This document shows, one piece after another, positions 4,694-49,634 of a stretch of 64,000 bases of DNA. Each line of letters starts with the position of its first letter. Positions within the stretch are counted from its first letter, which is position 1. Under the pieces are notes generated by a model, which saw only the letters and a program-made list of their open reading frames with translations, did no database searches and was not told the origin of the DNA. Both the position numbers and the translations under genes were made by a program. The DNA comes from an archaeon (GTDB lineage Archaea > Nanobdellota > Nanobdellia > Pacearchaeales > GW2011-AR1), in contig JABHWZ010000004.1 in the NCBI GenBank assembly GCA_018657525.1, positions 26,245 to 90,244 of the forward strand, in the 5' to 3' direction.

Positions 4694-4776
4694 ATAATTT
4701 TTTAAATAATCTACTTTATAATAATTTCTGTGCTTAAAAGTTTTATAGTTTTTTCAAATTATGTTCAAAAAATAAA

Positions 4777-4852
4777 TAGCAGGGGCAGGATTTGAACCAT
4801 GCGACCTCCGGGTTATGGGCCCGACGAGCACTCCAGACTGCTCCACCCTGCT
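4777..4852 (-). tRNA. tRNA-Met (anticodon CAU), initiator-like (A1:U72, three G:C pairs in anticodon stem)
   Basis: minus-strand sequence AGCAGGGTGGAGCAGTCTGGAGTGCTCGTCGGGCCCATAACCCGGAGGTCGCATGGTTCAAATCCTGCCCCTGCT+A closely matches the archaeal tRNAi-Met consensus; one extra nucleotide or bulge in the T-arm. Confidence 0.8.
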
Positions 4853-4943
4853 ATATAAATTCAACTTTCTTTTTACTTATAAAATTATCTATTTTAATTC
4901 TTGACGCTTGTAGGAGGCAACGAAAAAGCGTCTATTCAGATAA

Positions 4944-5005
4944 CGCGATGCCTATGTTCAATGGCCTTCTCTTATCCGAGCTTCGCGATGCCTATGCGCA
5001 ATGGC
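4944..5005. repeat. 22-bp imperfect direct repeat (2 mismatches) duplicating the toxin gene 3' end
   Basis: cgcgatgcctatgttcaatggc (4944-4965) and cgcgatgcctatgcgcaatggc (4984-5005); second copy contains the toxin stop codon. Confidence 0.7.
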
Positions 5006-5315
5006 TTTTTAACTCTTTTTTGATCTCTTTTTTATTTTCCAAATATTTTTCATATTTTTTAAAATTTTTAAAAACTCGTAGAAAAATCAATCTATGATTT
5101 TTATCAATTGCATAAACATAATGAATCTCATCCTTCACTGCCCGAAAAATATCTGCACCATTTATATGTTCCTCAAACTTATGCAATCGACTAAAATGCT
5201 CATGATTACTATCCGTAATCAATCCAACATCAAAATCCCCCGCATCTTTCTTAAATCTTTTTGTAACAATGACCTCTGATATCTTTCCTTCAAACTTATC
5301 GAAATGATTTTCCAT
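4992..5315 (-). CDS. RelE/ParE-superfamily toxin-like protein (orphan, no adjacent antitoxin ORF)
   Basis: 107-aa protein; C-terminal segment FRAVKDEIHYVYAIDKNHRLIFLRV resembles the RelE motif (R.RVGDYRIIY.ID...VYIL RIG); only 49 bp to the next gene upstream. Confidence 0.45.
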   Translation of the reverse strand: MENHFDKFEGKISEVIVTKRFKKDAGDFDVGLITDSNHEHFSRLHKFEEHINGADIFRAVKDEIHYVYAIDKNHRLIFLRVFKNFKKYEKYLENKKEIKKELKSHCA

Positions 5316-5364
5316 ACTTCTTAATAATAAACAAACTTAAAAACTCTCCTAATTTTTTTACTAC

Positions 5365-6036
5365 ATGGAATTGATTTTAGGAATAGATGATGCAGGCAGA
5401 GGTCCAGTTATCGGTCCAATGGTTTTGGCAGGAGTTCTTTTAGATTCAAAAACTGAAAGTGAACTTAAAAAATTAGGCGTGAAAGATTCTAAAGATTTAA
5501 CTCCCAAACGAAGAGGAATATTAGCTGAAAAGATTAAAGAGAAAGCAGAAACATTTGAGATAGAAATAATTTCTGCTCCAGATATCGACGATAAAAACGC
5601 GCAAGGAATAAAGTTAAATGAAGTAGAAGCTTTCGCGTGTGCAAATATAATAAATAAAATAAATAAAGGATACAAAAAAATAAAAGTAATCCTTGATTGC
5701 CCGTCGGTAAGTCTAATAAAATGGGGAGATTTCTTAAAAACTAAAATTAATAATTTATCTAATTTGGAAATAAGATGTGAACACAAAGCAGACAAAAATC
5801 ATGTTGCAGTTTCAGCAGCTTCGATAATTGCAAAAGAAACTCGAGAAAGTGAAATGACAAAACTAAAAGAAAAATACGGAAATGAAATTGGGTCAGGTTA
5901 TTGTTCTGACCCTTTAACCCAAAAATTTTTAGAAAAATTTTTACATAAATATGACAATGACGGAATTTTTAGAAAAACTTGGACAACTTATAAACGGGCA
6001 AAAGAAAAACTCAAACAAAGAAAACTCAGTTTTTAA
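5365..6036 (+). CDS. rnhB: ribonuclease HII
   Basis: N-terminal GIDDAGRGPVIGPMVLAG is the RNase HII catalytic motif (GIDEAGRGP..GP); 223 aa is typical for the family. Confidence 0.9.
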   Translation: MELILGIDDAGRGPVIGPMVLAGVLLDSKTESELKKLGVKDSKDLTPKRRGILAEKIKEKAETFEIEIISAPDIDDKNAQGIKLNEVEAFACANIINKINKGYKKIKVILDCPSVSLIKWGDFLKTKINNLSNLEIRCEHKADKNHVAVSAASIIAKETRESEMTKLKEKYGNEIGSGYCSDPLTQKFLEKFLHKYDNDGIFRKTWTTYKRAKEKLKQRKLSF

Positions 6037-21391: not shown

Positions 21392-21473
21392 TTATTGATT
21401 CTCTGATAACCCTTCCGAAGGTTTTTGCAGAGCATAATCTTCGCAAAGGTTTATTGATTTTCTGATAAACCTT
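21392..21473. repeat. 23-bp imperfect direct repeat (2 mismatches) duplicating the last codons and stop of fusA
   Basis: ttattgattctctgataaccctt (21392-21414) and ttattgattttctgataaacctt (21451-21473); the second copy encodes ...GLSENQ plus stop of EF-2. Confidence 0.7.
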
Positions 21474-23610
21474 TTCTCTCTCTAATCTTCTTAACAATAT
21501 CGTCTTGCATCGCTGGAGGAATCGTCTCAAATAACTGGTCCATTAAACTTGAAATTCCTCGACCCTCTGTCGCTGAACGTAAATCACTTGACCATCCCAT
21601 CATTTCTCCAACTGGAAGTTTAGATTTCATTTCTGCTGTTCCAGAATCTTGTTCAACATTAATCATTTGCCCTCTCTTACTTCCAACTAATTTTGTAACA
21701 GGTCCTAAAAATTCTTCAGGCATTTCAATTAAGTGAATCTGTAATGGTTCTAATAAACTAGGCTTTGCAGTTTTCATCGCTTCTGTGATACCTTCCCTAA
21801 CTGCCGGGTAAACTTGTGCAGGGCCACGATGAATTGCATCCTCATGAAGTTTAATATCCATTAACGAAACTTTCATCCTCGAGCACGGCTCTCTTGCTAA
21901 CGGACCTTGATCAATAACCATTTCAAAAGCATCCAAAATCATTTCAATAACTTCTTGCATGTGAACTTCTCCTTTTGTTGCATCCAAGAAAACATTGCCC
22001 TTGTAAACATCTCTTAAATTTCTAACAGTATTATTTTCCCAACTCAAATCCGCAAAAGTTTCTAAAAGTTCCTTCCCTGATTTTTTCTTTATTCTACCTT
22101 CAAAAATGTCCCCTTTCTGAATCGCCTTGGCAACATCTTCTTCTAATGGTTCAATTCTAATAAAAAAACTATTATGTTTATTCGGAGATCGACCTTCCAT
22201 TGTCTCTGATTCTTTGCCAACTGTTTCTCTATAAACAATAATCGGCGGGGAGGTTTTAACTTCTAATCCTTTTTCTGTTTTAATTCTATTCTCAATAATT
22301 TCTAAATGTAATTCCCCCATACCACTCATTAAAGATTCTCCTGTCTGATCATTAATTTCGATTTTCAAAGATGGATCTTCTTTACCAACCTGTCTTAAAA
22401 CTTCAACCAGCCTTGGTAAATCTGCTGCCTTGGTTGCCTCAATTGATTTTGTAACAACCGGATCAAATAAGTGAGTAATAGCTTCGAATGGTTCCATTTC
22501 ATCTTGGCTGACTGTCTCTCCCGCAACAACATCTCTCAATCCAACAATCCCAACGATATTTCCTGCTGAAACTTCTGGAACAATAATTCTCTGAGAACCC
22601 TTGTAAACTGAAACTTGTTGAACAGTAACATTTTTCTTTGCTGTACTCATGTAAAGCGAATCACCTTGTTTAATCTTTCCTGAAAATAATCTCCCTGCTG
22701 CAACTTCTCCTGCATGTTTATCAATAACAATCTTTGTAGGCACAAATACTGGAGTTCCGTTTGCATTACATTCAATCAAATTTTTTCCTAACTCTGATTC
22801 TTTATCTCCGTGCCAAATTTTGGGAATCCTATACGCCTGAGCTTGAACTGGATTTGGATGCTGTTTAATACTCATGTTTAAAACAACTTCATGTAGCGGT
22901 GCCTTTTTTGCTAGCTCTTTCCAGGTATCATTTTCATATGCATCAATAACTTCCTTGAAAGTAATTCCATGTTCTTTCATATAAGGAAAACTCAACGCCC
23001 AATTATGAAATGCAGAACCAAATGCAACTGTTCCCTCTGCAACTCCCACCTTCCATTTTTCTTTATAACCTTCCGGTGCAATCTGCTCGATTAATCTATT
23101 GATATGTTCAATAATTTTAACAAATTTTTCTTGCATAGCTTCTGGAGTCAATTTAACTTCTTTGATTAATCTATCAACTTTATTAATAAATAAAACCGGT
23201 TTAACCAATTCTTTTAATGCCTGTCTTAATACTGTTTCAGTTTGTGGCATAACTCCTTCAACAGCACAACTTAAAACAACACAACCATCAACTGCTCTCA
23301 TGGCTCTTGTAACGTCGCCACCAAAGTCAACATGTCCCGGCGTGTCAATTAAATTAATTAAAAATTCTCCACCTGCTTCTGGAAGATCATGAACCATTGA
23401 TACCGACGCTGAATCAATTGTAATTCCTCTTTCTGATTCATCTTCATGGAAATCCAAAGCTCTTTGTTTACCTGCTGTTTCTGCAGAAAGCATTCCTGCC
23501 CCCGCCAATAAATTATCTGAAAAAGTAGTTTTCCCGTGGTCAATATGCGCGGCAATCGCTATGTTTCGAATCTTCTCCTGTTGCTTCATTAAATCTTTTA
23601 TTTCTGTCAT
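21451..23610 (-). CDS. fusA: translation elongation factor 2 (aEF-2)
   Basis: AHIDHGKTT, DTPGH and NKVD GTPase motifs; diphthamide-region EDAIHRGPAQ; 719 aa. Confidence 0.95.
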   Translation of the reverse strand: MTEIKDLMKQQEKIRNIAIAAHIDHGKTTFSDNLLAGAGMLSAETAGKQRALDFHEDESERGITIDSASVSMVHDLPEAGGEFLINLIDTPGHVDFGGDVTRAMRAVDGCVVLSCAVEGVMPQTETVLRQALKELVKPVLFINKVDRLIKEVKLTPEAMQEKFVKIIEHINRLIEQIAPEGYKEKWKVGVAEGTVAFGSAFHNWALSFPYMKEHGITFKEVIDAYENDTWKELAKKAPLHEVVLNMSIKQHPNPVQAQAYRIPKIWHGDKESELGKNLIECNANGTPVFVPTKIVIDKHAGEVAAGRLFSGKIKQGDSLYMSTAKKNVTVQQVSVYKGSQRIIVPEVSAGNIVGIVGLRDVVAGETVSQDEMEPFEAITHLFDPVVTKSIEATKAADLPRLVEVLRQVGKEDPSLKIEINDQTGESLMSGMGELHLEIIENRIKTEKGLEVKTSPPIIVYRETVGKESETMEGRSPNKHNSFFIRIEPLEEDVAKAIQKGDIFEGRIKKKSGKELLETFADLSWENNTVRNLRDVYKGNVFLDATKGEVHMQEVIEMILDAFEMVIDQGPLAREPCSRMKVSLMDIKLHEDAIHRGPAQVYPAVREGITEAMKTAKPSLLEPLQIHLIEMPEEFLGPVTKLVGSKRGQMINVEQDSGTAEMKSKLPVGEMMGWSSDLRSATEGRGISSLMDQLFETIPPAMQDDIVKKIRERKGLSENQ

Positions 23611-33168: not shown

Positions 33169-36100
33169 CTACTTGTTTGCATTATCCACAGTTTTTGCCT
33201 TGGCTGTTTTCTTATCTTTGTCTTTCTTAATTAACGGACCAATAACATTAACTAACAATCCAGGAAGACCAGTTCCTACTGGCACCGGCTGATTAATAAT
33301 AATATTCTCAACAACACTTGTCAAATTATCCTGGCTACCTTTAATTGAAGCATTAATAAATTGTTTAACTGGCGTCTCGAAAGTAGCTCTTGCAAGTATC
33401 GAAGATTTTTGCGCAATTATTCCCATTCTTGTAACACCCTTAACTTCACCAGTATTACACATAGCATCTGAGATTAATTTTAAATGTCTCTTGTCGATAT
33501 CGATACCTTGACTATTCAACACTTCATTAACTTCATCCATAATTAATTGTCTCGCAGCCTCGATACCAAGAACTTTTGCAACTTCATGAAGATCGTTTGA
33601 AACTATTTTTTTCTTATTAACTTCTTTTAATTTTAACACTTCATCTAAGTTTGTCCCAAGCGTCATAATCACATAATTTGATTCTTTCTTTGCCACAAGA
33701 ATTTGCTCTACGCCCTTAACTCCTGAAATAATTGTATCCTTTAATTTTTCTTTTAATTTATAAATTTCTTTAAAATTAAACTCTTCAGCATTAACCTTAA
33801 TTGCATCTGGTTTTTCTTTTACTTTAAATCCTAAATCTTCTAATCTTTCTGTAATTTTTTTGATTGAAGTATGAGTTTGTTGTAGACCTTTTTTATTAAT
33901 AATTATTTCAATATTCTTTTCACTAAAATCTAAATTTATTTCTGAAGAAATTTCTTTTAACTTAACTTCTTTAATTTTTTCTGCAAAAACTCTTGCATCT
34001 TTTTCATTATTATATTCTTTCTCTAAATAGATTTCCATTTTTGGAGAAGAAGGTTTTTTTCTTGCATCGAAAATTTCAATCAATCTTGGTAATCCTGATG
34101 TGACTTGCATCTCTGCAACACCTGCCATATGGAAAGTATTTAGAACCATCTGCGTCGAACTCTCACCAAATGATTGTGCAGTAATTAATCCAATCGCTTC
34201 CCCGAATTCAACTTGTCCATCGTTCAAATGTAATTTACAAACATCTTTACCATCTTCACCAAATTTGAACTGGATTATTCTATTTCCAGAATCTCTTACC
34301 GTGCCGTCGTATTCAACTCTTAAATCTTGTAATGCATTAGCTAATCTTCTATACAAATAACCTGATTTTGGAGTTCTTAATGCAGTATCCATAAGTGAAT
34401 CTCTACCAGTAATTGCTTGAAAGAAAAATTCATCTGGTCTTAATCCTTTAATAAATGGACTATGGATAAATCCTCTTGACCTCGGAGACAAGTCTCCTTT
34501 TTTAAAGAATGACAATGTTCTATCATTATAACCGATTCCAATTCTTCCGCCCATAAATGCTTGCTGACCTACACATGAAGCCATCTGAGTAATATTCAAA
34601 ACATTTCCACCACCACCAGATTTAATCATATGACTTACTGGATTTGTAGCCGGGAATTTTTCTTTAACAATTGCACCAATCTTTGTTCGGATCTCATTTA
34701 ATGTTTGAAGAACTTTAATCTCTCTTGATTCTTCTGCAGTCTTACCAGGAATAATCTCCAATGTTTTTTCATTATAAGATTGAAGAATTTCTTGAGTTTT
34801 CTTTTCAGATTTTTTAATAATTTCTTCCCCTTCTTTTACAACATCTTCAGATAAATCCAAATCTTCTACTGAGATTGTAATTCCTCTTGAAGTTAAATAT
34901 TTTGTACCCAAATCAAAAACTTTCTTTAAAGTTCCAACCGCTTCAATTCTACCTAAATTTCTGTCTAGCTCTTTTACTAATTCTCCATCTTCTTCTGCAA
35001 AAGCTGTTTTGTCAACAACCCCACTTTCAATTTTTCCACCTTTGACCACTATAGAACTATTCTTAAAGTCAATCTTAGGAATAACTTCTGAGATTATATC
35101 TAATCCAGTGATTTGTTTCTTAGTAATTTCAGAATCAATTCCCGAGTTATATAATAACTGATTTGCTTCTGCTTTTGTTAACTCTGCTAGTCCTAATAAA
35201 TATCCCCCTGTAATTGAATCTGCTTGCGTTCCAAGTAAATTAGTATTATTCTTTGGAGAGATCAAATTTTGCTTAACATCCAATAAAATCTTCGCTTCAG
35301 CACGAGCCTCTTCGGTTTGAGGACTATGGATATTCATCTCATCACCATCAAAATCAGCGTTATAAGGGAATGTTGCCGCAGGATGTAATCTAAAAGTTCG
35401 TCCTGGTAAAACTTTAACATAATGAGCCATTAAACTTCCTCGATGTAACGACGGATGCCGATTAAATAAAACAATGTCTCCATCTTGTAAGTGTCTTTCA
35501 ACTCTATACCCAATATCTAATTCTTCAATAATTTCTTCTTTTAATTCTTCAGTAATCTTTTTTCTTTTCCCATCTGGCCTAATAATATAATTTGCTCCAG
35601 GATATTCTTTTCCTTTTTTAATTAATTTTTTCAATTTTTCAATATTTAAATCATTCACTGTTTCAGCAAAAGTAACTATCTCAGCAATTTCATAAGGAAC
35701 CCCAACTTCATTAATTTCTAAGGAAGGATCTGGAGATACAACTGAACGAGCAGAATAATTAACTCGCTTTCCTGCAAGGTTCTTTCTAATTCTTCCTTCT
35801 TTTCCTTTAATTCTTTCTGTAATTGTCTTCAATGGTTGTCCTGATCGATGTCTTGCAGGAGGAATTCTCGTAGTAGTATTATCAAAGAATGTCGTAATAT
35901 GAAATTGCAATAAGTCCCACAAATCCTCAATGATAACTTCTGGAGCACCAGCATTTAAATTTTCCCATAGTCTTTGATTAGCCCGGATAATGTCTGAAAG
36001 TTTATGAGTTAAATCATCTTCTGATCTCTCCCCTGACTCCAAAATAATACTTGGCCTAATTGTCACAGGAGGAACAAGCAACATTGTGAGAATCGCCCAT

Positions 36101-36663
36101 TCTGGTCTTGCTGAATTGGGATCAACGCCTATTTTTTCAAATTCTTCATCAGGAATATTAGTTAACATCTCTCGAACCTGAGTTGGAAAAAGTCTTTTTT
36201 TCCCAATATAAAAACTAGTAGGTTTCTCTAATTTCACCCTTGGATGCTCAACTCCACAATAAGGACATTTTTTAACATCCTTAGCTTTTTTAGCTCTTTC
36301 ACTTAAAGAATATTTCTTCATTTTTTCTTCGTTCAATAATAATTTCCCACAATCATGACAGAAAGATCTCAAAGCAATTTCAACTAATGGAATATATTTT
36401 AGATGCATAACTGGTCTTGCTAAATCAATACTCCCTGGATGTCCCAAACATTCTTTTAATCTTCCACCACAAGTTCTACATCTAACTCCCGGATCAACTG
36501 CCCCCATTCTTAAATCCATCAATCCACCATCGACAGGGTATCCATCAATATCATAAAGTTCTGGAGTTACTATTTTCGCCGAAGATATTTTCTTAATTTT
36601 CTCAGGACTAACTAATGAAAACTTTATATTCTTTATTTTTTTTCTAATTATTTTTGGTGCCAT
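33169..36663 (-). CDS. rpoA: DNA-directed RNA polymerase subunit A, unsplit (A' and A'' fused in one 1164-aa ORF)
   Basis: N-terminal zinc motifs CRTCGGRLKECLGHPG; catalytic NADFDGDEMN; bridge helix TALRTPKSGYLYRRLANALQDL; trigger-loop region SFGESSTQMVLNTFHMAGVAE (normally the start of A'') all in one frame. Confidence 0.95.
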   Translation of the reverse strand: MAPKIIRKKIKNIKFSLVSPEKIKKISSAKIVTPELYDIDGYPVDGGLMDLRMGAVDPGVRCRTCGGRLKECLGHPGSIDLARPVMHLKYIPLVEIALRSFCHDCGKLLLNEEKMKKYSLSERAKKAKDVKKCPYCGVEHPRVKLEKPTSFYIGKKRLFPTQVREMLTNIPDEEFEKIGVDPNSARPEWAILTMLLVPPVTIRPSIILESGERSEDDLTHKLSDIIRANQRLWENLNAGAPEVIIEDLWDLLQFHITTFFDNTTTRIPPARHRSGQPLKTITERIKGKEGRIRKNLAGKRVNYSARSVVSPDPSLEINEVGVPYEIAEIVTFAETVNDLNIEKLKKLIKKGKEYPGANYIIRPDGKRKKITEELKEEIIEELDIGYRVERHLQDGDIVLFNRHPSLHRGSLMAHYVKVLPGRTFRLHPAATFPYNADFDGDEMNIHSPQTEEARAEAKILLDVKQNLISPKNNTNLLGTQADSITGGYLLGLAELTKAEANQLLYNSGIDSEITKKQITGLDIISEVIPKIDFKNSSIVVKGGKIESGVVDKTAFAEEDGELVKELDRNLGRIEAVGTLKKVFDLGTKYLTSRGITISVEDLDLSEDVVKEGEEIIKKSEKKTQEILQSYNEKTLEIIPGKTAEESREIKVLQTLNEIRTKIGAIVKEKFPATNPVSHMIKSGGGGNVLNITQMASCVGQQAFMGGRIGIGYNDRTLSFFKKGDLSPRSRGFIHSPFIKGLRPDEFFFQAITGRDSLMDTALRTPKSGYLYRRLANALQDLRVEYDGTVRDSGNRIIQFKFGEDGKDVCKLHLNDGQVEFGEAIGLITAQSFGESSTQMVLNTFHMAGVAEMQVTSGLPRLIEIFDARKKPSSPKMEIYLEKEYNNEKDARVFAEKIKEVKLKEISSEINLDFSEKNIEIIINKKGLQQTHTSIKKITERLEDLGFKVKEKPDAIKVNAEEFNFKEIYKLKEKLKDTIISGVKGVEQILVAKKESNYVIMTLGTNLDEVLKLKEVNKKKIVSNDLHEVAKVLGIEAARQLIMDEVNEVLNSQGIDIDKRHLKLISDAMCNTGEVKGVTRMGIIAQKSSILARATFETPVKQFINASIKGSQDNLTSVVENIIINQPVPVGTGLPGLLVNVIGPLIKKDKDKKTAKAKTVDNANK

Positions 36664-40175: not shown

Positions 40176-40334
40176 TTAACAACTTTACAATAATAAAAGA
40201 TTATGAATTTTCATTTAAAAAGCTTTCTATAATCTGGGAAATATGCTTTAAATTGAATATTTGCGAAACAAAAGCTTTTTTAAAGTATTTATCCCCATTT
40301 AATTTATTATTTGGGTTTAGTATTCAAATAATAT

Positions 40335-40411: not shown

Positions 40412-40672
40412 ATGTTTGACAAAGATATCTCTGAAATTTTATGCTATTGTTGTGGAGAAGAATATTCTATCAGAGAATTTAATTCAGAACTCCCCTTAGA
40501 GTTTTGTGGAGAATGTGGAGCAGAATTTTTCCTCCCTAAATCACACAATCCCTTAAAAGGTTACAAGTGCCTTGATCAATATTACAGTTTATTAGAATTG
40601 TTGCCCCCCCATCTTCTTAATCATTTACCTCTCTATCTAACTCCTCAGTTAAGTCCTCAAAGAATCAGTTAA
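40412..40672 (+). CDS. small zinc-ribbon-like protein (CxxC...CxxC)
   Basis: the track ORF starts inside the tRNA; a likelier ATG at 40412 gives MFDKDISEILCYCCGEE...CGECGAEF; overlaps the thioredoxin gene on the opposite strand at its 3' end. Confidence 0.35.
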   Translation: MFDKDISEILCYCCGEEYSIREFNSELPLEFCGECGAEFFLPKSHNPLKGYKCLDQYYSLLELLPPHLLNHLPLYLTPQLSPQRIS

Positions 40673-40969
40673 TTTCTCTTCAAGTTCTTCAGCACTAACC
40701 GCTCCAACAATTCTATCAAAAATCTTGCCATCTTTTATTATAATCATATTTGGAATTGAACTAACTTTATATTTGTCCGCCAACGCAGGATTATTTGCAA
40801 TATCTATTTTCCCAAATTTAATTTTATCATTAAATTTATCTTCCATCTCGTCGACAATTGGAGACATCATTATACAAGGCATACACCAATCTGCAAAAAA
40901 ATCAATAAATACAATTCCCCCTTTAAGGAACTCTTCAAATTCATGATTGGTTAATTCTTTGACAACCAT
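40649..40969 (-). CDS. trx: thioredoxin (CMPC active site)
   Basis: FFADWCMPCIMMSPIV thioredoxin-fold motif; 106 aa. Confidence 0.8.
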   Translation of the reverse strand: MVVKELTNHEFEEFLKGGIVFIDFFADWCMPCIMMSPIVDEMEDKFNDKIKFGKIDIANNPALADKYKVSSIPNMIIIKDGKIFDRIVGAVSAEELEEKLTDSLRT

Positions 40970-41008
40970 TAAATTTGAACAATTTTTTAATTTATAAAAT
41001 TATTCGTT

Positions 41009-41557
41009 CTATAAAATATCCTGTAAAACTTCCTCTACCTTTTTTTCCAAATCTTCAAAACTCCCATTATTTTCAAAAACAAAATCTGCCTTATTAATAC
41101 ATTGAGAAATATTTTGTTTAGCAGGATCATTGGAAATCATTTCTCTTTTTTCATTTACTACAAATTCTTGGAAAGAAACATTATCTGTTTTGCTCTGCCT
41201 TAAGAGAATTCTTTCATACCTTTTCCTAATTTCTGCATCAACTGCTAATAAATAAAATTTTCCTTTGGACTGAAGTGCTTCAACTTCTCCAACTGCTCGC
41301 AGACTTTCAATAACTGCCAAACCTCCATCTTCCCTCGCTGATTCGTATAATTTTTCCACTATATAACTTGGGGAATTTTCAGCCCGCAATTTATTTGCCA
41401 CCAGAACCATATTATCTCGGTTCACTGCTAGACTTAATATTTTTATTTCGTCGACGATAAAATCCCTAACAGAATAATGCACAAAACCCTTTGTCTTTAA
41501 ATAATCTACAATCGTTCCTTTCCCTGCTCCGAGTGTTCCAGTAATTCCGATTATCAT
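41009..41557 (-). CDS. P-loop (deoxy)nucleotide or dephospho-CoA kinase-like protein
   Basis: Walker A GITGTLGAGKGT at the N-terminus; 182 aa; 4-bp overlap with dut in a dNTP-metabolism operon. Confidence 0.55.
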   Translation of the reverse strand: MIIGITGTLGAGKGTIVDYLKTKGFVHYSVRDFIVDEIKILSLAVNRDNMVLVANKLRAENSPSYIVEKLYESAREDGGLAVIESLRAVGEVEALQSKGKFYLLAVDAEIRKRYERILLRQSKTDNVSFQEFVVNEKREMISNDPAKQNISQCINKADFVFENNGSFEDLEKKVEEVLQDIL

Positions 41558-41985
41558 GCTCCACTACTCCCAAACCCGCTGTCACTTCTTTCACTTTCTT
41601 TTAACTTTTCAACTTCTTCAAATTCTATTTGTGGATAAGGAAGAATTATAATTTGACAAATTTTATCTCCCACTTCATAAACTTCTTCCCCAATTTTTCT
41701 AAATCTTAATTTTAATTCTCCACGATAACCAGAATCAATGACTGCTACATGATTTGTTAAAACCAAATCTTTATTGGATAAACTACTTCGTGGAAAAATA
41801 ATACCCACATACCCTTCTGGAATTTCAAATGCTAATTCAGTCCCATATTCAATAAACTTTTCTTTTTCTTCCTTAGACATTGCAATCAAGTCCATCCCAG
41901 CGTCACCAAATTTAGCATATTCAGGAATAATTGCATTAGAATTTAATTTCTTTATTTTTACTCGCATTTGCTTCCACACCCACAA
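41554..41985 (-). CDS. dut: dUTP diphosphatase (trimeric dUTPase/dCTP-deaminase fold)
   Basis: motifs AGMDL, FPRSSLS and VIDSGYRGEL; 143 aa. Confidence 0.8.
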   Translation of the reverse strand: MWVWKQMRVKIKKLNSNAIIPEYAKFGDAGMDLIAMSKEEKEKFIEYGTELAFEIPEGYVGIIFPRSSLSNKDLVLTNHVAVIDSGYRGELKLRFRKIGEEVYEVGDKICQIIILPYPQIEFEEVEKLKESERSDSGFGSSGA

Positions 41986-44522
41986 ACTTTACATCCTTCT
42001 TGATAAGTAAAGGGTTGTCCACAATCTTTACATACCTCTCTTGTTTGTGTACCATCTTCGATATATTTTTTCAATGCCCTTCTAACCCCACTTTTCCAAC
42101 TATGAATTCCCTCTATCTTATCATCCATTTTATCAATTATATGGACTATCTCTTCTAACGGAACTTGATTTCGCATCATTCCAGAAATCATTCTACTATA
42201 ATTCCAGTAAGCTCTATCAAACTGGTGTGAAATTCCTCCAACTCTTGATTGAAATCCATTTCTATCGGCATAGATAAAATCATAATGAGTTCGTTGTCCA
42301 TCCTTTTCCTTTACAATTATCCCTTCAGTTATGTTACTGGGAACCGCTAAGACTTCCTCTTCTGATTTGCCTGTAAAAATCTCATACGGTCTGCCTTCAT
42401 GTAATCCCACAAACGCAATCCATTTATCTAGACAATCAGGTGATTGATTATTAAATCTCAAAACTTCAGCTTCAAGTTCTTTTGGACGATTACTTAGTAT
42501 ACTTGTCACAGAGTTTTCTTTTGTAGTCATAACCCCTGACCCTCTTGATCCATCTCGATAGATAGTAATTCCCTTACATCCGGCTTCCCATGCTTTTTGA
42601 TAAACTTTTGCTACAGTTTCTTTAGTAGTCTCTTCTGGAAGATTAACTGTAGCACTAATAGAATGATCTACCCATTTCTGAACTCTTCCCTGCAATTCTA
42701 CTTTTTTTACCCAATCAGTATCTTGGGCTGTTGATTTATTATAAGGTGATTCTTTCACTAGTTCTTTTAACTCTTCTTTACCCATATTTAAAATATTCTG
42801 TTTAGAATATCCTAATGGTTCTGCCCATTCCATAAAAGGTCTATGAACTATGTCAAAAATTTCCCATTCATCCCCAACATTATCCACATCATCCACTTTT
42901 GCCCCGCGATTTGTTTTGGCATTTGTATCTATTTTTTTCCGTCTTTGGTATCTTGCTGCAAATAAGGGTTCTATTCCTGAGGATGTTTGTGTCATAATGC
43001 TTGTAGTCCCAGTGGGAGCAATTGTAAGAAGAGCTATATTTCTTCTCCCATCTTTTTGCATTTCATTATAAAGTTCTGGGCGCGCCTCACGAATTCTCTC
43101 AATAAAAGGATTGTCTGCTTCTAGTTCTGGATCATAGACTGAAAATGCTCCTCTCTCCCTAGACATTTCAATAGATGATTGATATGCGCTTAGTGCCATT
43201 TCTTCATGTAATTTTTCTTCAAATTGATTTCCTTCTTCTGTAGCATATCCTAATCCTAATGCTGCCAATGTGTCTGCTTCGCCAACAATCCCCAACCCAG
43301 TTCTTCTCCCCCCAGAGGTTTGCTTTCTAATTTTTTCCCATAATCTTCTTTCTACACTCTTTATTTCATCTAACTCTGGATCCCTATTAATTTTATCCAA
43401 AATTTTATCTATTTTCTCCAATTCTAAATCTACAATATCATCCATAATTCTCTGCGCTTTCTTAACATTTTTTTGAAATAAATCATGATTAAATTCAGCT
43501 TCAGGAGTAAAACGATTTTCAACATGCTCATAAAGATTTAGAGCTAATAATCTACAAGAATCATAAGGGCAAAGGGGAATCTCCCCACAAGGATTTGTTG
43601 AAGTGGTTTTATAACCAAATTCAGAGTACCTATCTGGAAGAGATTCCCGGATAATATTATCCCAAAATAAAATTCCCGGTTCAGCAGATTGCCAAGCATT
43701 ATGAATTATCTTTCCCCAAAGTTCACCAGCATTAACTGCTTGAGTGTATTTTGGATCATCAGTTTCAATTGGAAATTGTTGAAAATATTCCCCTCCATTT
43801 AACGCTTTATTCATAAATTCATCATCTACTCTGACTGAACAATTTGCCCCAGTAATTCTTCCCAAATCCATTTTAGCATCAATAAAATCTTCTGCATCTG
43901 GATGTCGAATAGATAAGCTTAACATAAGTGCCCCCCGCCTACCATCTTGAGCAACTTCCCTTGTAGAATTTGAATGTCTATCTGCAAAAAGTACCACTCC
44001 CGTAGAAGTTAATGCAGAATTATTTACTGGACTCGCTTTAGGACGAATTCCTGATAAATCATACCCTACTCCTCCTCGACGTTTCATAAGTTGTACTTGT
44101 TCTTGATCTATTTGCATGATCGCTCCGTAAGAATCCGCAGATTCTTCTTGCACTCCAATCACAAAACAATTTGATAATGATGCAACTTGAAAATCATTTC
44201 CAATGCCAGTCATTGGGCTTCCCTGTGGAACTATATATTTAAAATCTTTAATCAATTCAAAAATTTCTTCTTCTTCCATTGGATTTTTATAATTTGCCTC
44301 AACTCTTGCAATTTCCCCAGCAATTCTATGATGCATATCCTCTGGAGTTCTCTCATATAAATTTCCAAAAGAATCTTTCAAAGCATATTTGTCAAGCCAA
44401 GTTAATGCAGCAAATCTATTTCCATTAAAGTATCTTGTGGATGCTTCAGCTGCTTCTTGGAAACTATATTTGGGAAGCTCCTTTGATACCAAAGTCTTAT
44501 TTTCTATTGTCTTTCCCATCAC
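41958..44522 (-). CDS. nrdJ: ribonucleoside-diphosphate reductase, class II (adenosylcobalamin-dependent, monomeric type) with C-terminal zinc ribbon
   Basis: active-site NPCGEIPL with the preceding Cys; conserved glycyl/thiyl-radical-domain blocks; C-terminal CKDCGQ...CKVCGCGSKCE; no NrdB-like gene nearby. Confidence 0.85.
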   Translation of the reverse strand: MMGKTIENKTLVSKELPKYSFQEAAEASTRYFNGNRFAALTWLDKYALKDSFGNLYERTPEDMHHRIAGEIARVEANYKNPMEEEEIFELIKDFKYIVPQGSPMTGIGNDFQVASLSNCFVIGVQEESADSYGAIMQIDQEQVQLMKRRGGVGYDLSGIRPKASPVNNSALTSTGVVLFADRHSNSTREVAQDGRRGALMLSLSIRHPDAEDFIDAKMDLGRITGANCSVRVDDEFMNKALNGGEYFQQFPIETDDPKYTQAVNAGELWGKIIHNAWQSAEPGILFWDNIIRESLPDRYSEFGYKTTSTNPCGEIPLCPYDSCRLLALNLYEHVENRFTPEAEFNHDLFQKNVKKAQRIMDDIVDLELEKIDKILDKINRDPELDEIKSVERRLWEKIRKQTSGGRRTGLGIVGEADTLAALGLGYATEEGNQFEEKLHEEMALSAYQSSIEMSRERGAFSVYDPELEADNPFIERIREARPELYNEMQKDGRRNIALLTIAPTGTTSIMTQTSSGIEPLFAARYQRRKKIDTNAKTNRGAKVDDVDNVGDEWEIFDIVHRPFMEWAEPLGYSKQNILNMGKEELKELVKESPYNKSTAQDTDWVKKVELQGRVQKWVDHSISATVNLPEETTKETVAKVYQKAWEAGCKGITIYRDGSRGSGVMTTKENSVTSILSNRPKELEAEVLRFNNQSPDCLDKWIAFVGLHEGRPYEIFTGKSEEEVLAVPSNITEGIIVKEKDGQRTHYDFIYADRNGFQSRVGGISHQFDRAYWNYSRMISGMMRNQVPLEEIVHIIDKMDDKIEGIHSWKSGVRRALKKYIEDGTQTREVCKDCGQPFTYQEGCKVCGCGSKCE

Positions 44523-44962
44523 TTAATCCCTCCAATCTCTTTTTTAAAATCTTTAACATCTTGAAAATCTTTATATACCGACGCAAATCTTATGTATGCA
44601 ATATTATCTAATCGCTTAATTTTTTTAATGATTAATTCTCCAATTTTAAAACTCTTGATTTCCTTTTTCCCCTTTCTTCTTATTTGTTCCTCAATTTCGT
44701 TTACCATTTTTTTAATTTTTTCTTGCGACACCGGTCGCTTTTCAAATGCTCTTGTCACCCCAATCCCAATTTTTTCAATATTAAATTTTTGTCTTGCACC
44801 ATCTTTTTTTATTACCCAAATTTCTCCCTTATCAATTTTTTCATATGTTGTGAATCTTTTTTGACATTTGAGACATTCCCTTCTTCTTCTGATGCCCTCT
44901 GGAGAATTTCTTTTATCTGTAACCCTATGGGTCGTATGTGAGCAATATGGACATTCTATCAT
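44519..44962 (-). CDS. nrdR: NrdR-family transcriptional repressor of ribonucleotide reductase genes (zinc ribbon plus ATP-cone)
   Basis: MIECPYCSHTTHRVTDKR...RRRRECLKCQKRFTTYEKI then ATP-cone VIKKDGARQKF...KRPVS and C-terminal IAYIRFASVYKDFQDVKDF match NrdR; the track ORF (to 44977) begins at a TTG, ATG at 44962 fits NrdR length. Confidence 0.8.
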   Translation of the reverse strand: MIECPYCSHTTHRVTDKRNSPEGIRRRRECLKCQKRFTTYEKIDKGEIWVIKKDGARQKFNIEKIGIGVTRAFEKRPVSQEKIKKMVNEIEEQIRRKGKKEIKSFKIGELIIKKIKRLDNIAYIRFASVYKDFQDVKDFKKEIGGIK

Positions 44963-44972
44963 TCTTTTAATA

Positions 44973-45017
44973 TACAATATGTTGTATGAAGTTATTCTCT
45001 CTTACACCATAATTTGT
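44973..45017. promoter_or_regulatory. two candidate NrdR-box-like imperfect palindromes spaced 31 bp centre-to-centre, immediately upstream of nrdR
   Basis: tACAATATGTTGTa (44973-44986) and ACACCATAATTTGT (45004-45017) resemble the ACAC.ATAT..GTGT NrdR box; 31-bp spacing equals the tandem-box spacing known in bacteria. Confidence 0.4.
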
Positions 45018-45108
45018 ATTATAACTAAAAATAAATCCTATTTAAACATTTATAATCACTTTAAAGTGGGCGGAGGAAATTGAAGGATTTTTTAGTTGTT
45101 ATCATTAT

Positions 45109-45939
45109 TCATGCACAAATCCCAACTAACTGACATTTCTTACAAATTTTTCCACGCGAAGGCTCCCCACAATTTTCACAATATTTAACGCCTTCGCTCT
45201 TTTTCTCAACCCGCTTCAAAAGTTTCTTTGAATTTTTAATTATATTCTCTTTTTGTTTTGTCGGAACTTTTTCTAAAAAATTCCTTATCTGAATCCTATA
45301 AGAATCAATAGCACACGGACATCCCTCATAATGAACTGGAAGTTTATTTTTCTTTGAATATTTTTTAATATCTTCTTCAGCAATATAAAACAGCGGTTTA
45401 ATCCTCGGAATAAATTTTTTATTTGAAATATTTTTTGTTACAATTCCAGAACTTGCACTTAATTCTAAACTTCCCTTAAAAACATTCATTAAAATTGTCT
45501 GCGCTTCGTCGTCGAGATTATGACCGGTTGCAATATAATCCGCTTTCAATCCCCTCACTGCTTTATTTAAAATCCATTTTTTAATAACCCCACAAATTGC
45601 ACAATTTTTAATCTGTGATTTTTTCTGTTTGTAATGTTCAGTCTGAATCGCAGTTCGAAGATAACACATTCCAGAACCCATTTCTTTTTTCATATCATAA
45701 AGATGCAATCGCATATCCAATAATTTACAAAGCTCGACAACTTTTTTCAAACACTCTTCAGAATATTTCCCAATTTTTAAATCAATGTGTAACCCTTCAA
45801 TTTTATGTCCAAGTTTGTGCAAAAGATATGCAACAACAGTAGAGTCCTTCCCTCCAGATAAAGCTACCACGATTTTTTTTTCCTTATTTAAACCAATTCG
45901 CTTTATAGTTTCCTTAAATTTTTTCTCAAGTTTATCCAT
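45109..45939 (-). CDS. PP-loop ATP pyrophosphatase, TtcA/TtuA-family tRNA thiolase-like, with extra C-terminal zinc ribbon
   Basis: PP-loop VALSGGKDS; Cys motifs CAICG and EGCPC at TtcA-like Fe-S ligand spacing; C-terminal CENCGEPSRGKICKKCQ. Confidence 0.65.
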   Translation of the reverse strand: MDKLEKKFKETIKRIGLNKEKKIVVALSGGKDSTVVAYLLHKLGHKIEGLHIDLKIGKYSEECLKKVVELCKLLDMRLHLYDMKKEMGSGMCYLRTAIQTEHYKQKKSQIKNCAICGVIKKWILNKAVRGLKADYIATGHNLDDEAQTILMNVFKGSLELSASSGIVTKNISNKKFIPRIKPLFYIAEEDIKKYSKKNKLPVHYEGCPCAIDSYRIQIRNFLEKVPTKQKENIIKNSKKLLKRVEKKSEGVKYCENCGEPSRGKICKKCQLVGICA

Positions 45940-45977
45940 AGAATAAATTAGTTCTAAGAAGTTTTAAATGTTATTAG

Positions 45978-46373
45978 TTATCTATCTAATTCTGTGTGAC
46001 AATGAACTGTCCATAAAAATGAAGGCAATAAATATGTTTTTCCTTTGTGCTCTGTCAAGTATCCAAATTTCTTTTCCAGAACTGCATCCAATCCATAATC
46101 TTTTCTTCCTTTAACTTCTCTGGCTCTCCATTCTCCTACTTTAGCTGCTCTCATAATCAAATTAACAAGATGTTGTTCATATTTGGAGTTTCCCAAAGTG
46201 TCCATAACTAATCTGGCTACAACATTTTTTCCCTGCGCAATAGCGCTTTTATGTTTACCAAAAACATCTTCGACAGGACTTTCCCTGTTTAAAATTCTCA
46301 TATAATCATCAGAATAAATTTCATCATCTAAGATTACATTTTGACCAATTAATTTTCTACTTGGAATTGTCAT
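45978..46373 (-). CDS. hypothetical protein (131 aa), downstream partner of Cys-rich small protein copy 1
   Basis: ORF with 4-bp overlap to the upstream small gene. Confidence 0.45.
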   Translation of the reverse strand: MTIPSRKLIGQNVILDDEIYSDDYMRILNRESPVEDVFGKHKSAIAQGKNVVARLVMDTLGNSKYEQHLVNLIMRAAKVGEWRAREVKGRKDYGLDAVLEKKFGYLTEHKGKTYLLPSFLWTVHCHTELDR

Positions 46374-46588
46374 CTTTTTTTCTCCATATGATTATCACAT
46401 CGTCCCTTGCCACAAGTCTGATGAAGTCTTTCGCCTTCTGCAGTTGGTTTACAGTTTAAACAATCATATATCTCTAATCCCTCAACATCATGCGCTTTAA
46501 CTCTGTGGGGCTTTGTCTTGTCTGGATCATATTTAGAGCATCCTCCAACATAGCTTCGATGCAAAATGCCGTTTTCATCTATAGTCAT
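46370..46588 (-). CDS. 72-aa Cys-rich (zinc-ribbon-like) small protein, paralog copy 1
   Basis: about 55% identical to the ORF at 47312-47530 (RSYVG.CS.Y.PD.T.P..VKA.DVEGL..Y.CLNC.PT.EGE...Q.CGK..C.N); the 17-nt stretch tccaacatagcttcgat is shared at nucleotide level. Confidence 0.5.
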   Translation of the reverse strand: MTIDENGILHRSYVGGCSKYDPDKTKPHRVKAHDVEGLEIYDCLNCKPTAEGERLHQTCGKGRCDNHMEKKR

Positions 46589-46649
46589 TGTATTATTGTA
46601 ATTTTAAAGGGGTATTTAAATCTTTTGTTCTAAGAAGTTTTAAACTTTC

Positions 46650-47315
46650 TTATCTGTAAAATTCTTCAACTTTATTATCTAAATACTCTGCCTCTTCTAG
46701 TGGAAGTTTACCTTTTCTTCTCATTTGGCAAGCCCATCCCATCATCAACCCTGCTGTTGAAGTCATAAATGGAGGAAAAACTTGTGTCATAAATTCCATA
46801 TGAGCCTGGATCTCAGCAGAAGGGGCAGGATTAACTCCCCCTGTTAGATAATTACAGAGAAGAGGTGCTATTGTATACGCCATTGCTGCAGTAATTGCCA
46901 CCATCCCCACAAAATTATCTGGTGCTAAAATTCCATCAGTTCTTAAATAATTCAATCCCCTGCTAACCAATTCTTTTGTTTGTCCTAATCTTTCATTATG
47001 AACTTTATTTCTTCTCCTAGGAAATAATCTCCAAACCGGTTTATCAACTCGATCAGATAACTCTCTTAAAGAATCTCCAATAGTTATCTTTCCATTTATC
47101 GCATCTTTCAAAACAGGATTCTCTTCATATGCTCTTATTATTTGTTTTTGATATTCAGACATATCAATCCAAGGTAAATCCTCAAGAGTGGGCCCCATAT
47201 AGTTTTCTTCAAACATTCTATATCCTTCAAACTTTTTTCTTACTTCATCAAACTCTTGTCGAATTTCATCATTTATTCCTTCTGATTCTTTTAATTGAGC
47301 ATATAAACTTGTCAT
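46650..47315 (-). CDS. hypothetical protein (221 aa) with hydrophobic C-terminal half, downstream partner of Cys-rich small protein copy 2
   Basis: ORF with 4-bp overlap to the upstream small gene; hydrophobic segment GMVAITAAMAYTIAPLLCNYL. Confidence 0.5.
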   Translation of the reverse strand: MTSLYAQLKESEGINDEIRQEFDEVRKKFEGYRMFEENYMGPTLEDLPWIDMSEYQKQIIRAYEENPVLKDAINGKITIGDSLRELSDRVDKPVWRLFPRRRNKVHNERLGQTKELVSRGLNYLRTDGILAPDNFVGMVAITAAMAYTIAPLLCNYLTGGVNPAPSAEIQAHMEFMTQVFPPFMTSTAGLMMGWACQMRRKGKLPLEEAEYLDNKVEEFYR

Positions 47316-47530
47316 CTTTTTTTCTTCCTAAAATTTTCACAATATCTCTTACCACACGGTTGAGTTATTTTCTCTCCTTCATCAGTTGGCACACAATTCA
47401 AACATTCATAAACATCCAAACCTTCCACATCACGCGCTTTAACTCCGCGAGGTCTTGTAGTGTCTGGTAAATAACTAGAACACTCTCCAACATAGCTTCG
47501 ATTTAAAATTCTGTTTCTATTTCTTACCAT
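47312..47530 (-). CDS. 72-aa Cys-rich (zinc-ribbon-like) small protein, paralog copy 2
   Basis: paralog of 46370-46588 with the same Cys spacing. Confidence 0.5.
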   Translation of the reverse strand: MVRNRNRILNRSYVGECSSYLPDTTRPRGVKARDVEGLDVYECLNCVPTDEGEKITQPCGKRYCENFRKKKR

Positions 47531-47618
47531 CGTAATATTTCAATTTTTAAAACATTTATAAACATTTGTATGTTCAATAAATCCAAATATTTATAAAACA
47601 TTTTTTTATCTAATTTTT

Positions 47619-47921
47619 ATGACAAAACAATTAGATAAGATGGCAAGTGACTTTTCTTTAGCCTATGCTTTATGTTCTAGTGCAAGAAGGACTTGTTGTA
47701 TAATTGGGCCCGCTCTAAGACTTGGAAGTTTTGATTTAGAAAATATGCAAATGTTTATTGAAGGACTTAAAGATAATTGGAATTTGTTAAACCAACTTTC
47801 CACCAGATATCTTAAAACTCAAGAGATTACAAATTATCTTCTTCAAGTTAAATCTACTGCAAAAGACTCCTTGCCAGAAAATTTTTATAATTGGATTTAT
47901 GAAACTGACTCTACAGATTAA
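47619..47921 (+). CDS. hypothetical protein (100 aa)
   Basis: ORF only. Confidence 0.4.
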   Translation: MTKQLDKMASDFSLAYALCSSARRTCCIIGPALRLGSFDLENMQMFIEGLKDNWNLLNQLSTRYLKTQEITNYLLQVKSTAKDSLPENFYNWIYETDSTD

Positions 47922-47933
47922 TCAAATCTAATC

Positions 47934-48920
47934 TTAATCACATGTTTCAATTTTTTCTTTTGTTATATACTGATATGCAGAATAAGCTGCAGTGCAACCA
48001 TCCGCCACTCCAATAATTAATTGTTTGAATTCTTTATCAGTTACATCCCCTGCTGCGAAAATCCCTTTAACATTAGTTAAACAATTTTTATGGTCAATTA
48101 TTATTTCATCTTTCTTATTTGTTTTAACTCCAATATCTTTTGCTAATCCCGAAAGAACCTTATGGCCAATTGCAACAAAAACAGCATTAACTTCTAATTC
48201 TTTCTTCTTTTTGTAGGGTTTATCCAAAGTCACTGATTCAGCTTTGGAACTTCCTTTAACTTCTATGACGTTTGTTTTATTTATTACTTTAATTTTTTTA
48301 TTCTCTTTAATTTTTTCTAAATTTGTCGGTTCAGGATGAATCTTTTCCCCTCGATAAATCATGTAAACTTTATCTGCATATTGAGCTAAAATAAGTGCAT
48401 CAATCGCAGCACTATCTGACCCTCCAATAACTGCCACAGTTTTCCCCCTATACAAAGGACCATCACATAAGGCACAATAATTAATTCCTCTTCTGTCAAA
48501 TTTTTCAGAACCTTTCACAGTTTTTGGAAGTTTCCTCCATTTTGTTCCTGTTGCAAAAATAATTGCCTTTGATTTATATCCTTCTTTTTCAGTTTTAATA
48601 TTAAAACAAGTTTTCATTTTTTCCACTGATTCAGCTTTTTCAGTTTTAATAGTAATATCTTCATAATTTCTTGCATGTTCTTCGATTTTTCTAGCAAGTT
48701 CCATCCCTCCAATTTTTTTAAAACCAGGATAATTTTCCACCACATTTGTTGTAGTGATAACTCCTCCAATTGGTAACTCGGAACCATGAGGAGTCCCTAA
48801 AACCAAAGTTTTCAAACCCAATCTTGAAGCATACATTCCCGCGGCCAAACCTGTTCCTCCTGCACCGATAATAATCAAATCATAATTTTCTTTAACAACT
48901 TCTTTTCCCTCTTTTTTCAT
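47934..48920 (-). CDS. trxB: thioredoxin-disulfide reductase-like FAD/NAD(P) oxidoreductase
   Basis: FAD-binding IIGAGGTGLAAG; redox CALCDGPLYRGKTVAVIGGSDSA (TrxB CAxCDG then NAD site); C-terminal GIFAAGDV. Confidence 0.8.
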   Translation of the reverse strand: MKKEGKEVVKENYDLIIIGAGGTGLAAGMYASRLGLKTLVLGTPHGSELPIGGVITTTNVVENYPGFKKIGGMELARKIEEHARNYEDITIKTEKAESVEKMKTCFNIKTEKEGYKSKAIIFATGTKWRKLPKTVKGSEKFDRRGINYCALCDGPLYRGKTVAVIGGSDSAAIDALILAQYADKVYMIYRGEKIHPEPTNLEKIKENKKIKVINKTNVIEVKGSSKAESVTLDKPYKKKKELEVNAVFVAIGHKVLSGLAKDIGVKTNKKDEIIIDHKNCLTNVKGIFAAGDVTDKEFKQLIIGVADGCTAAYSAYQYITKEKIETCD

Positions 48921-48960
48921 ATTATCTTCCTATTTTTATTTAATTTAAATGTTCCCTTTT

Positions 48961-49314
48961 TTATCCCCGCCATCGATCAATTTTATTTTCAACTTTGGTA
49001 GACCAGCTTTGGATAATCTGTTTTATTTTTTTTCTAATCTGCATTTTTGAATTACATTCATAGGTAAAAATATACCCTCCATTTTGCAAATTCTTTTGAT
49101 GTCTAATTATAACTTCTTGCCCAAATAATTTTTTTACTGCTTTTTGAATTGTAGTTAAACCTAAATTTAATTTTTTAATCATCCCTATAGTGGTATGTTC
49201 TGTTTTGGAATTAGCTAAAAAATATTTAAAAATTTCAAATTCCTTTTTAGTCAGTCCTAATCCACATTTAATAATATCATCCAAATTAAACTTTTTACAC
49301 GCAAAGTTTATCAT
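48961..49314 (-). CDS. putative winged-helix transcriptional regulator
   Basis: segment [13 protein letters not shown]...[22 protein letters not shown] resembles a MarR/TrmB-type wHTH; 4-bp overlap with the thioredoxin gene. Confidence 0.4.
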
Positions 49315-49634
49315 CCTAGAATAGATTCAATTTTTTCTTTCAAAGCTTCTTTCGGCACAAATCCCACAATTCTATCAATTTCTTTCCCATCTTTAGTTAC
49401 AATCAGACAAGGGATCCCACTAACCTCAAATTGTGCAGGAAGATTCTCTTCCTCTTCGATATTAACCTTGACAAATTTTAGTTTCCCAACAAAGTCTTCA
49501 CTAAGTTCTTCAAAAACCGGGCCCATCATTTGACACGGACCACACCACGAAGCCCAGAAATCAATGATTACAGGAATTTCTGATTTTTCAACTTCCTCTT
49601 GGAAATTCAAACTTATTACTTTTTTTGTTGTCAT
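49311..49634 (-). CDS. trxA: thioredoxin (WCGPC)
   Basis: [18 protein letters not shown] active site; 107 aa. Confidence 0.85.

Follow-up and report, generated by a model that had tools for sequence, protein, structure and literature searches.

The closest described counterparts of the proteins treated here are the C(P)XCG zinc-finger micro-proteins of Haloferax volcanii, such as HVO_2753 and HVO_0758 (PMC11241148, PMC10716476, PMC6562870), one-domain archaeal proteins of ~70 amino acids (aa) or fewer with four cysteines and predicted metal binding, many of them with unknown or pleiotropic function. In a 64,000-nucleotide (nt) stretch of archaeal contig JABHWZ010000004.1 (assembly GCA_018657525.1, positions 26,245 to 90,244 of the forward strand; here called the window), we analyzed two tandem modules, each consisting of a gene for a 72-aa Cys-rich protein (S1 and S2, together the S proteins) and an overlapping second gene. 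S shares the features listed above with the Haloferax proteins, and AlphaFold2 settles metal binding neither for them nor for S. However, the C(P)XCG motif is absent from S1, S2, and the S consensus, no sequence homology is detectable, and the S family, unlike the C(P)XCG micro-proteins, is confined to a few DPANN-type lineages.

A classical zinc ribbon with two CxxC knuckles, for example the N-terminal domain of NrdR (PF22811) encoded 1.5 kb away, resembles S in being a small Cys module. The S copies of the window have one CxxC only, however, and the two conserved CxxC/CxxH knuckles of a ribbon are absent, as is any Pfam or NCBIfam match for S at E ≤ 1. The second Cys of the CxxC, C46, is present in 6 of 12 aligned family members. 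Because the CxxC knuckle is thus not conserved in the family, the term zinc ribbon, used for these proteins in an initial annotation of the locus, is unsupported.

Termination-reinitiation at ATGA overlaps has been shown in Haloferax and needs an overlap or a very short distance between the two genes (Huber et al. 2019, PMC6728339; 2023, PMC10666635). Both modules share with these pairs the archaeal host, the -4 overlap, and a second gene without a visible promoter, whereas coupling is only predicted here, and the overlap is not conserved in the S homologs and is general in this genome. It occurs in 11 of the 62 co-directional neighbor pairs of the window and is the commonest short spacing. 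The 4-bp overlap noted earlier at the end of each S gene is therefore real (ATGA in both cases) but does not distinguish the modules.

With type II toxin-antitoxin and polymorphic toxin-immunity systems, the modules have in common a two-gene, overlapping, small-gene-first layout, a variable second gene, and an unrecognizable family. They lack, however, any toxin, antitoxin, or immunity domain, a defense island, and a mobile context; S is autonomous elsewhere, and the locus is invariant within the species. Thyroglobulin type-1 is a eukaryotic extracellular disulfide domain. The one of EpCAM (PDB 6i07/4mzv) gave the single PDB sequence match of S, sharing Y-D-P-D ... K-A ... G ... C-x-N over ~42 residues at E = 0.57. 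Only one Cys is matched, while three others (after YDPD, in KQC, and in MCW) align with non-Cys residues, and with its disulfide cysteines unaligned this match was rejected as chance.

All four open reading frames (ORFs) of the two modules were confirmed on the minus strand, as follows.

47312 to 47530, minus strand: S1 (HN832_04080), ORF for a 72-aa small Cys protein, 112.9 bits against the family hidden Markov model (HMM)
46650 to 47315, minus strand: HN832_04085, 221-aa orphan protein with an acidic N-terminal region, a hydrophobic C-terminal half, and an isoelectric point of 5.3
47309 to 47325, minus strand: junction 1, AGAAAAAAAGATGACAA, where the TGA stop of S1 overlaps the ATG of the 221-aa gene
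46370 to 46588, minus strand: S2 (HN832_04090), ORF for a 72-aa small Cys protein, 118.3 bits against the family HMM
45978 to 46373, minus strand: HN832_04095, 131-aa basic soluble protein of a two-member family
46367 to 46383, minus strand: junction 2, with the same letters as junction 1, where the S2 stop overlaps the start of the 131-aa gene

The stop/start overlap is ATGA (4 nt) at both junctions, which is the -4 spacing of termination-reinitiation pairs. S1 and S2 align without gaps and are identical at 43 of 72 residues (60%; E 1e-31) and at 157 of 219 nt of DNA. The paralogy put forward in the initial annotation thus holds, at 60% identity and not the ~55% given there, and so does the Cys spacing it described (C17, C43-x2-C46, and C59-x4-C64 in both copies). 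The 17-nt identical stretch it reported lies at the gene junctions; two more exact DNA runs, of 18 nt (47485-47502 and 46543-46560) and 12 nt, are shared by the S genes. Between S1 and S2, the nonsynonymous rate (dN) is 0.27 and the synonymous rate (dS) 0.87 (dN/dS 0.32, Fisher p = 6e-4), which shows that both copies have been kept as coding genes under purifying selection. Across the family, dN/dS was 0.1 to 0.66 in all estimable pairs with homologs of other organisms. The two copies were sisters in 246 of 300 neighbor-joining bootstraps, which indicates that they are lineage-specific duplicates. S2 is nearer to the family consensus than S1, with identities of 60% to homolog P0005 and 56% to P0007.

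The S family is very rare. A word-indexed search of 5.8 billion proteins returned just one 99% identical variant. A profile search over all 1.84 billion cluster representatives gave 13 matches at E < 1e-3, of which 10 are relatives of 69 to 105 aa with E values of 1e-21 to 3e-4. Two long proteins were treated as spurious: P0014, which has Ig-like repeats and matches in many short stretches only, and P0016, in which no Pfam domain is present and the match consists of 12 short stretches. S1, S2, and both partner proteins had no significant match in Pfam, NCBIfam, PHROGs, or PADLOC, in agreement with the earlier statement that none of them belongs to a recognizable family. The S family is absent from every curated library and new to curated databases. 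Wherever a relative has usable context, its contig is archaeal or low in GC. The initial annotation had named, as speaking against its view, homology to a housekeeping family together with the presence of both copies in relatives. This was looked for and not found: S had no Pfam or NCBIfam match to ribosomal or RNA polymerase zinc subunits, and with ~10 relatives in 1.84 billion it is not near-universal. A regulator-effector pair is accordingly a conceivable, if doubtful, reading.

In the 12-sequence family alignment, S12, C17, Y20, P22, D23, C43, N45, and C64 are invariant, and C59 is found in 11 members. The conserved cysteines are C17, C43, C59, and C64, spaced C-x25-C-x15-C-x4-C in the numbering of the window copies. 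Amino-acid conservation over these sequences is 32 to 60%, and they come from lineages whose EF-2 proteins are 57 to 67% identical.

We read the S loci of other archaeal contigs in full, with the following arrangements.

L011 (305-kb archaeal contig): TrmB, S, then 206-, 125-, and 99-aa orphans; 18-nt gap behind S
L018: S12, S7, a 111-aa gene, EF-2, S, then a 120-aa orphan; 47-nt gap
L025: EF-2, three genes, S, and two paralogous orphans
L024: S, then TrmB
L016: S, then a convergent gene
L014, L020, and L022: S among other unrelated neighbors

In these loci, the gap from S to the next gene is 18 to 90 nt or the next gene is convergent; none overlaps S. The intergenic spacers of ≥40 nt that were read contain TATA-like boxes, the genes downstream of S are all mutually unrelated, and each locus has one S copy in the DNA available. 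The pairing of a small protein with a coupled partner is thus unsupported as a property of the family. Since S stands alone elsewhere, with a putative promoter of its own, as does the one homolog of the 131-aa protein, the coupling to a partner is peculiar to this genome.

The position of S relative to EF-2 is partly retained. S lies directly downstream of EF-2 in L018 (1751-4222) and 1.8 kb downstream in L025 (33-4210), contigs whose EF-2 proteins are 67% identical. The window EF-2 (21451-23610), which is 57% identical to that of L018, has no S gene close by. The family has thus persisted through deep divergence, with synteny kept within one sub-lineage, as is typical of a chromosomal and not of a mobile gene. 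The synteny hints at translation as one possible area of function.

Several other features of these contigs were noted. A TrmB-family regulator adjoins S upstream in L011 (5165-6225) and downstream in L024 (88-1158), and the two TrmB proteins are barely similar (21% identity over ~60 aa). In L011 (6244-7602), the 206-aa orphan consists of two copies of a domain seen in the nearby 99-aa orphan. In L025 (4252-5660), the adjacent 227- and 241-aa orphans beside S are paralogs with 33% identity. In L018, a HepT/MNT (nucleotidyltransferase) toxin-antitoxin pair and a small ferredoxin are encoded at 4640-5478 on the minus strand, convergent to S and the 120-aa gene.

The two partner proteins are unrelated to each other (BLASTP E 23), as stated before, and distant homology between them was rejected at an hhalign probability of 0.5%. 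For the 221-aa protein, a word-indexed search of 5.8 billion proteins returned itself only, and no family, PDB, or viral match was found. Its hydrophobic C-terminal half is borne out by a Kyte-Doolittle peak at about residues 134 to 157 and, by eye, a weaker second segment at about 175 to 198. The sole homolog of the 131-aa protein, P0004, is 56% identical and is found in Nanoarchaeota metagenome-assembled genomes (MAGs); the dN between the two genes is 0.35 and the dS is 1.05. The P0004 gene is monocistronic with its own TATA box and lies between the FKBP and eIF5A genes, with no space upstream for S. A profile search with the 131-aa alignment over genome, viral, and metagenome collections returned just the known Nanoarchaeota MAG. 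The AlphaFold2 model of the pair, with a mean predicted local distance difference test score (pLDDT) of 35.5, was too poor for a fold search. A match of the 131-aa protein to DUF2711 (E 0.0086, below the cutoff) was rejected since P0004 does not reproduce it. An ancestral operon of S, 221-aa, and 131-aa genes was rejected as well, since the 206- and 125-aa genes after S in L011 are unlike the 221- and 131-aa genes.

Two repeats bracket the modules, a head repeat (D1) and a tail repeat (D2).

47309 to 47567 versus 46367 to 46625, minus strand: D1, 259 nt, 71% identical
47531 to 47567, minus strand: D1a, upstream part, putative S1 promoter, with TTTATAAA at 47555-47562, -32 to -25 from the ATG
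46589 to 46625, minus strand: D1b, upstream part, putative S2 promoter, with TTTAAATA at 46613-46620, -32 to -25 from the ATG
46624 to 46652, minus strand: D2a, starting at the stop codon of the 221-aa gene and abutting D1b
45948 to 45976, minus strand: D2b, following the stop codon of the 131-aa gene and carrying TTTAAAAC

D1 runs from 37 nt upstream of S (24 of 37 matching between the copies) through the S gene into the following gene, of which it includes the first 7 nt (ATGACAA). D2 is 29 nt long and 86% identical, with an 18-nt exact core, TTTAAAACTTCTTAGAAC, that occurs at these two sites only in the window. Upstream of S1, the alignment is too weak to support a further, degenerate copy of D2. 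We scanned metagenomes for the 18-mer and obtained 29 single matches, none with a homolog of S, of either partner, or of a 100-aa ORF divergent from S1 nearby, and these matches were therefore taken as chance. D1 and D2 are contiguous at 46624/46625, from which it follows that the modules are head-to-tail copies of a head-body-tail unit with unrelated bodies.

The geometry of archaeal TATA boxes suggests that the octamers upstream of S1 and S2 are promoters; at -32 to -25 they would give leaderless S transcripts. TTTAAAAC in D2b lies at -29 to -22 from the ATG (45939) of the next gene, which encodes a TtuA/NcsA-like enzyme, and judging by archaeal spacing D2b is probably the promoter of that gene. 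In both modules, the partner frame is open for just 5 to 7 codons upstream of its ATG, a stretch that spans an A7 run. Speculatively, a -1 slip on this run would fuse S to the partner.

Taking these results together, we hold with moderate confidence that the S proteins form a rare family in DPANN-type archaea, vertically inherited and normally encoded by stand-alone genes, and that S1 and S2 are tandem paralogs within it, specific to this lineage. S would be a small structural metal-binding protein of ~70 to 105 aa, probably Zn(Cys)4, that acts alone as a binding or adaptor protein. For the local architecture, ordinary segmental duplication within a compact archaeal chromosome is the best reading. 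The duplicated unit would comprise a head (promoter and S gene with the initial 7 nt of the gene behind it), a body, and the 29-nt tail. It may have arisen by an old head-to-tail segmental duplication or by single-crossover (Campbell-type) integration of a circle carrying tail, head, and body, and later one body may have been replaced, or the two units may have been assembled from different sources. Each S gene would then open a leaderless transcript of two genes, and the partner gene, predicted to have no promoter of its own here, would probably be translated by termination-reinitiation at the ATGA.

Several observations weigh against this view. At a dS of ~0.9, a duplication would be expected to leave the 18-nt tail core less conserved than it is, which points to a function (promoter or operator) or to gene conversion, neither being part of this model, and two unrelated bodies lie within the same head and tail. 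Concerning metal binding, the Cys spacing of S fits no classical zinc motif, AlphaFold2 on the 12-sequence alignment gave a pLDDT of 52.5 with almost no secondary structure, too poor for a fold search, and several predicted Cys4 micro-proteins of Haloferax bind no zinc (PMC11241148). The S copy counts cover the 64-kb window and short metagenomic contigs, not whole genomes. Finally, both overlaps have been retained, which fits a specific interaction between S and its partner in this genome.

That interaction is the main rival, since genes for heteromeric complexes show an enrichment of overlaps (PMC10666635). In such dedicated two-subunit pairs, the membrane-associated 221-aa protein would go with S1 and the soluble 131-aa protein with S2, each S serving as a small subunit, chaperone, or assembly factor, and stoichiometric assembly during translation would be enforced by the ATGA coupling. 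The identical 17-nt overlap at both junctions despite a dS of ~0.9 and the purifying selection on both paralogs agree with this. However, S homologs elsewhere never overlap any partner family or pair with one consistently, the 131-aa family occurs without S in another nanoarchaeote, and the -4 overlap is, as said above, the usual short spacing in the window. One small fold would also have to fit two different proteins, the partners being unrelated. We consider dedicated pairs unlikely.

The genes bordering the modules on both sides (window 40649-49634) belong to thiol redox and deoxynucleoside triphosphate synthesis. The modules lie between the following two genes.

47934 to 48920: TrxR
45109 to 45939: TtuA/NcsA-like PP-loop enzyme

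Upstream are a thioredoxin, a DnaD_N-like winged-helix protein, and TrxR; downstream are the TtuA/NcsA-like tRNA thiolase, NrdR, NrdJ (class II ribonucleotide reductase), Dut, an AAA_18 kinase, and a second thioredoxin. S might accordingly be a thiol-redox or iron-sulfur helper of this neighborhood, for example an electron or sulfur carrier or a cluster-binding factor, and besides the position between TrxR and the TtuA/NcsA-like gene, the coincidence of D2b with the putative promoter of the latter and the ferredoxin gene two genes from S in L018 are in line with such a role. The context is not conserved, however, as other S loci adjoin EF-2, TrmB, membrane proteins, or orphans; no CxxC redox motif is conserved in the family, and S is unlike the thioredoxin, glutaredoxin, NrdH, rubredoxin, and ferredoxin families. 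A helper role of this kind is improbable.

We regard as still more doubtful that the modules are a polymorphic accessory cassette (toxin-immunity, defense, or regulator-effector) or a virus or plasmid remnant, in which a small zinc protein goes with variable effectors, as the initial annotation proposed. The cassette-like appearance is genuine: unrelated orphan bodies are bracketed by head and tail repeats, more so than had been claimed, one partner is a small membrane protein, and S is followed at nearly all loci by an orphan gene that has no Pfam domain, with duplicated neighbors at two. Yet in these DPANN contigs roughly every second gene lacks a Pfam domain, so orphan neighbors of S are at the base rate. 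PADLOC gave no family for the five locus proteins and three homologs, and no toxin, antitoxin, or immunity domain was found in the locus proteins with Pfam and NCBIfam. PHROGs had no match to the locus proteins, GenBank phages (INPHARED) none to S2 and both partners, PLSDB plasmids none to S2, the one protein searched there, and IMG/VR none, with the 221- and 131-aa profile queries also empty. A profile search with the S alignment over genome, viral, and metagenome collections returned nothing. No S-partner pair was found co-occurring as a conserved pair in other genomes, and the synteny of S with EF-2 in diverged lineages speaks against an accessory element.

The locus itself also does not look like an insert. 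Housekeeping genes flank it, without any sign of an integrase or attachment site, the closest tRNA gene is ~5.5 kb off at 40334, and the G+C content of the region (0.346) is about 1 standard deviation above the window mean (0.323 ± 0.022). As 13% of equal-sized windows have an equal or higher value, the excess over background remarked on earlier is not meaningful. Identical copies of all five genes occur on ~40 contigs of the species, which stem from at least four MAGs; two further contigs carry one single-nucleotide polymorphism in 1554 nt, giving L21F in S1. The region is thus essentially invariant among these contigs, where variability had been suggested as a check. What remains of the proposed cassette is the module of a duplicated small gene and a variable second gene, without its zinc-ribbon and accessory-system parts.

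In a further reading, which we think highly improbable, S is the conserved head of a DPANN gene-capture or diversification locus, where the promoter-leader cistron together with the 29-nt D2 recruits orphan genes by recombination. The captured gene would be expressed via the ATGA/A7 junction, the -1 slip being one possibility. This would explain the conservation of the tail core, the unrelated bodies in identical boundaries, and the often duplicated orphan neighbors of S. That the small ORFs are not genes but chance ORFs or the coding shadow of a repeated non-coding element, as could be imagined from their shortness and from possible over-calling in AT-rich DNA, is effectively refuted by the amino-acid conservation over 12 sequences, by the dN/dS values of the family, and by the absence of any Rfam family at the locus.

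DPANN genomes are tiny, with about half of their genes uncharacterized, and S defines a family under purifying selection across deeply diverged lineages. With 72 aa, four conserved cysteines, and five invariant polar or aromatic residues, it is a tractable target. If S does bind metal or a conserved cellular partner, it would be one more lineage-specific DPANN component. The local duplication in itself is ordinary genome evolution, and as the toxin or mobile reading is unsupported, follow-up effort in that direction can be spared.

The host is a low-GC (32%) archaeon of DPANN type, as seen from its aEF-2 (TIGR00490 at 999 bits) and an RpoB with Rpb2 domains 4 and 5. The NCBI entries at the locus, HN832_04075 to HN832_04095, are labeled "archaeon", and every one is a "hypothetical protein". 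The first of them lies upstream of S1.

47619 to 47921, plus strand: 100-aa orphan ORF (HN832_04075), divergent from S1 and also called in other assemblies

The 100-aa ORF has no family match in Pfam, NCBIfam, PHROGs, or PADLOC, and whether it is part of the S1 module is uncertain. A 16-nt inverted repeat at 47606-47638 (TTATCTAATTTTTATG and CAAAACAATTAGATAA, 88% complementary, 1-nt spacer) spans its start codon and may be an operator in the divergent promoter region between it and S1.

NrdR is chiefly a bacterial regulator. In the window it is full length (44519-44977, minus strand; TIGR00244 at 174.7 bits, above the cutoff), and its gene overlaps nrdJ by 4 nt. Because of the mainly bacterial occurrence of NrdR, the nrdR-nrdJ pair in this archaeal window may have been acquired horizontally. 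In archaea, two genes, A' and A'', usually share the coding of the largest RNA polymerase subunit; here it is encoded unsplit by one 1164-aa ORF (33169-36663, minus strand) with Rpb1 domains 1 to 5.

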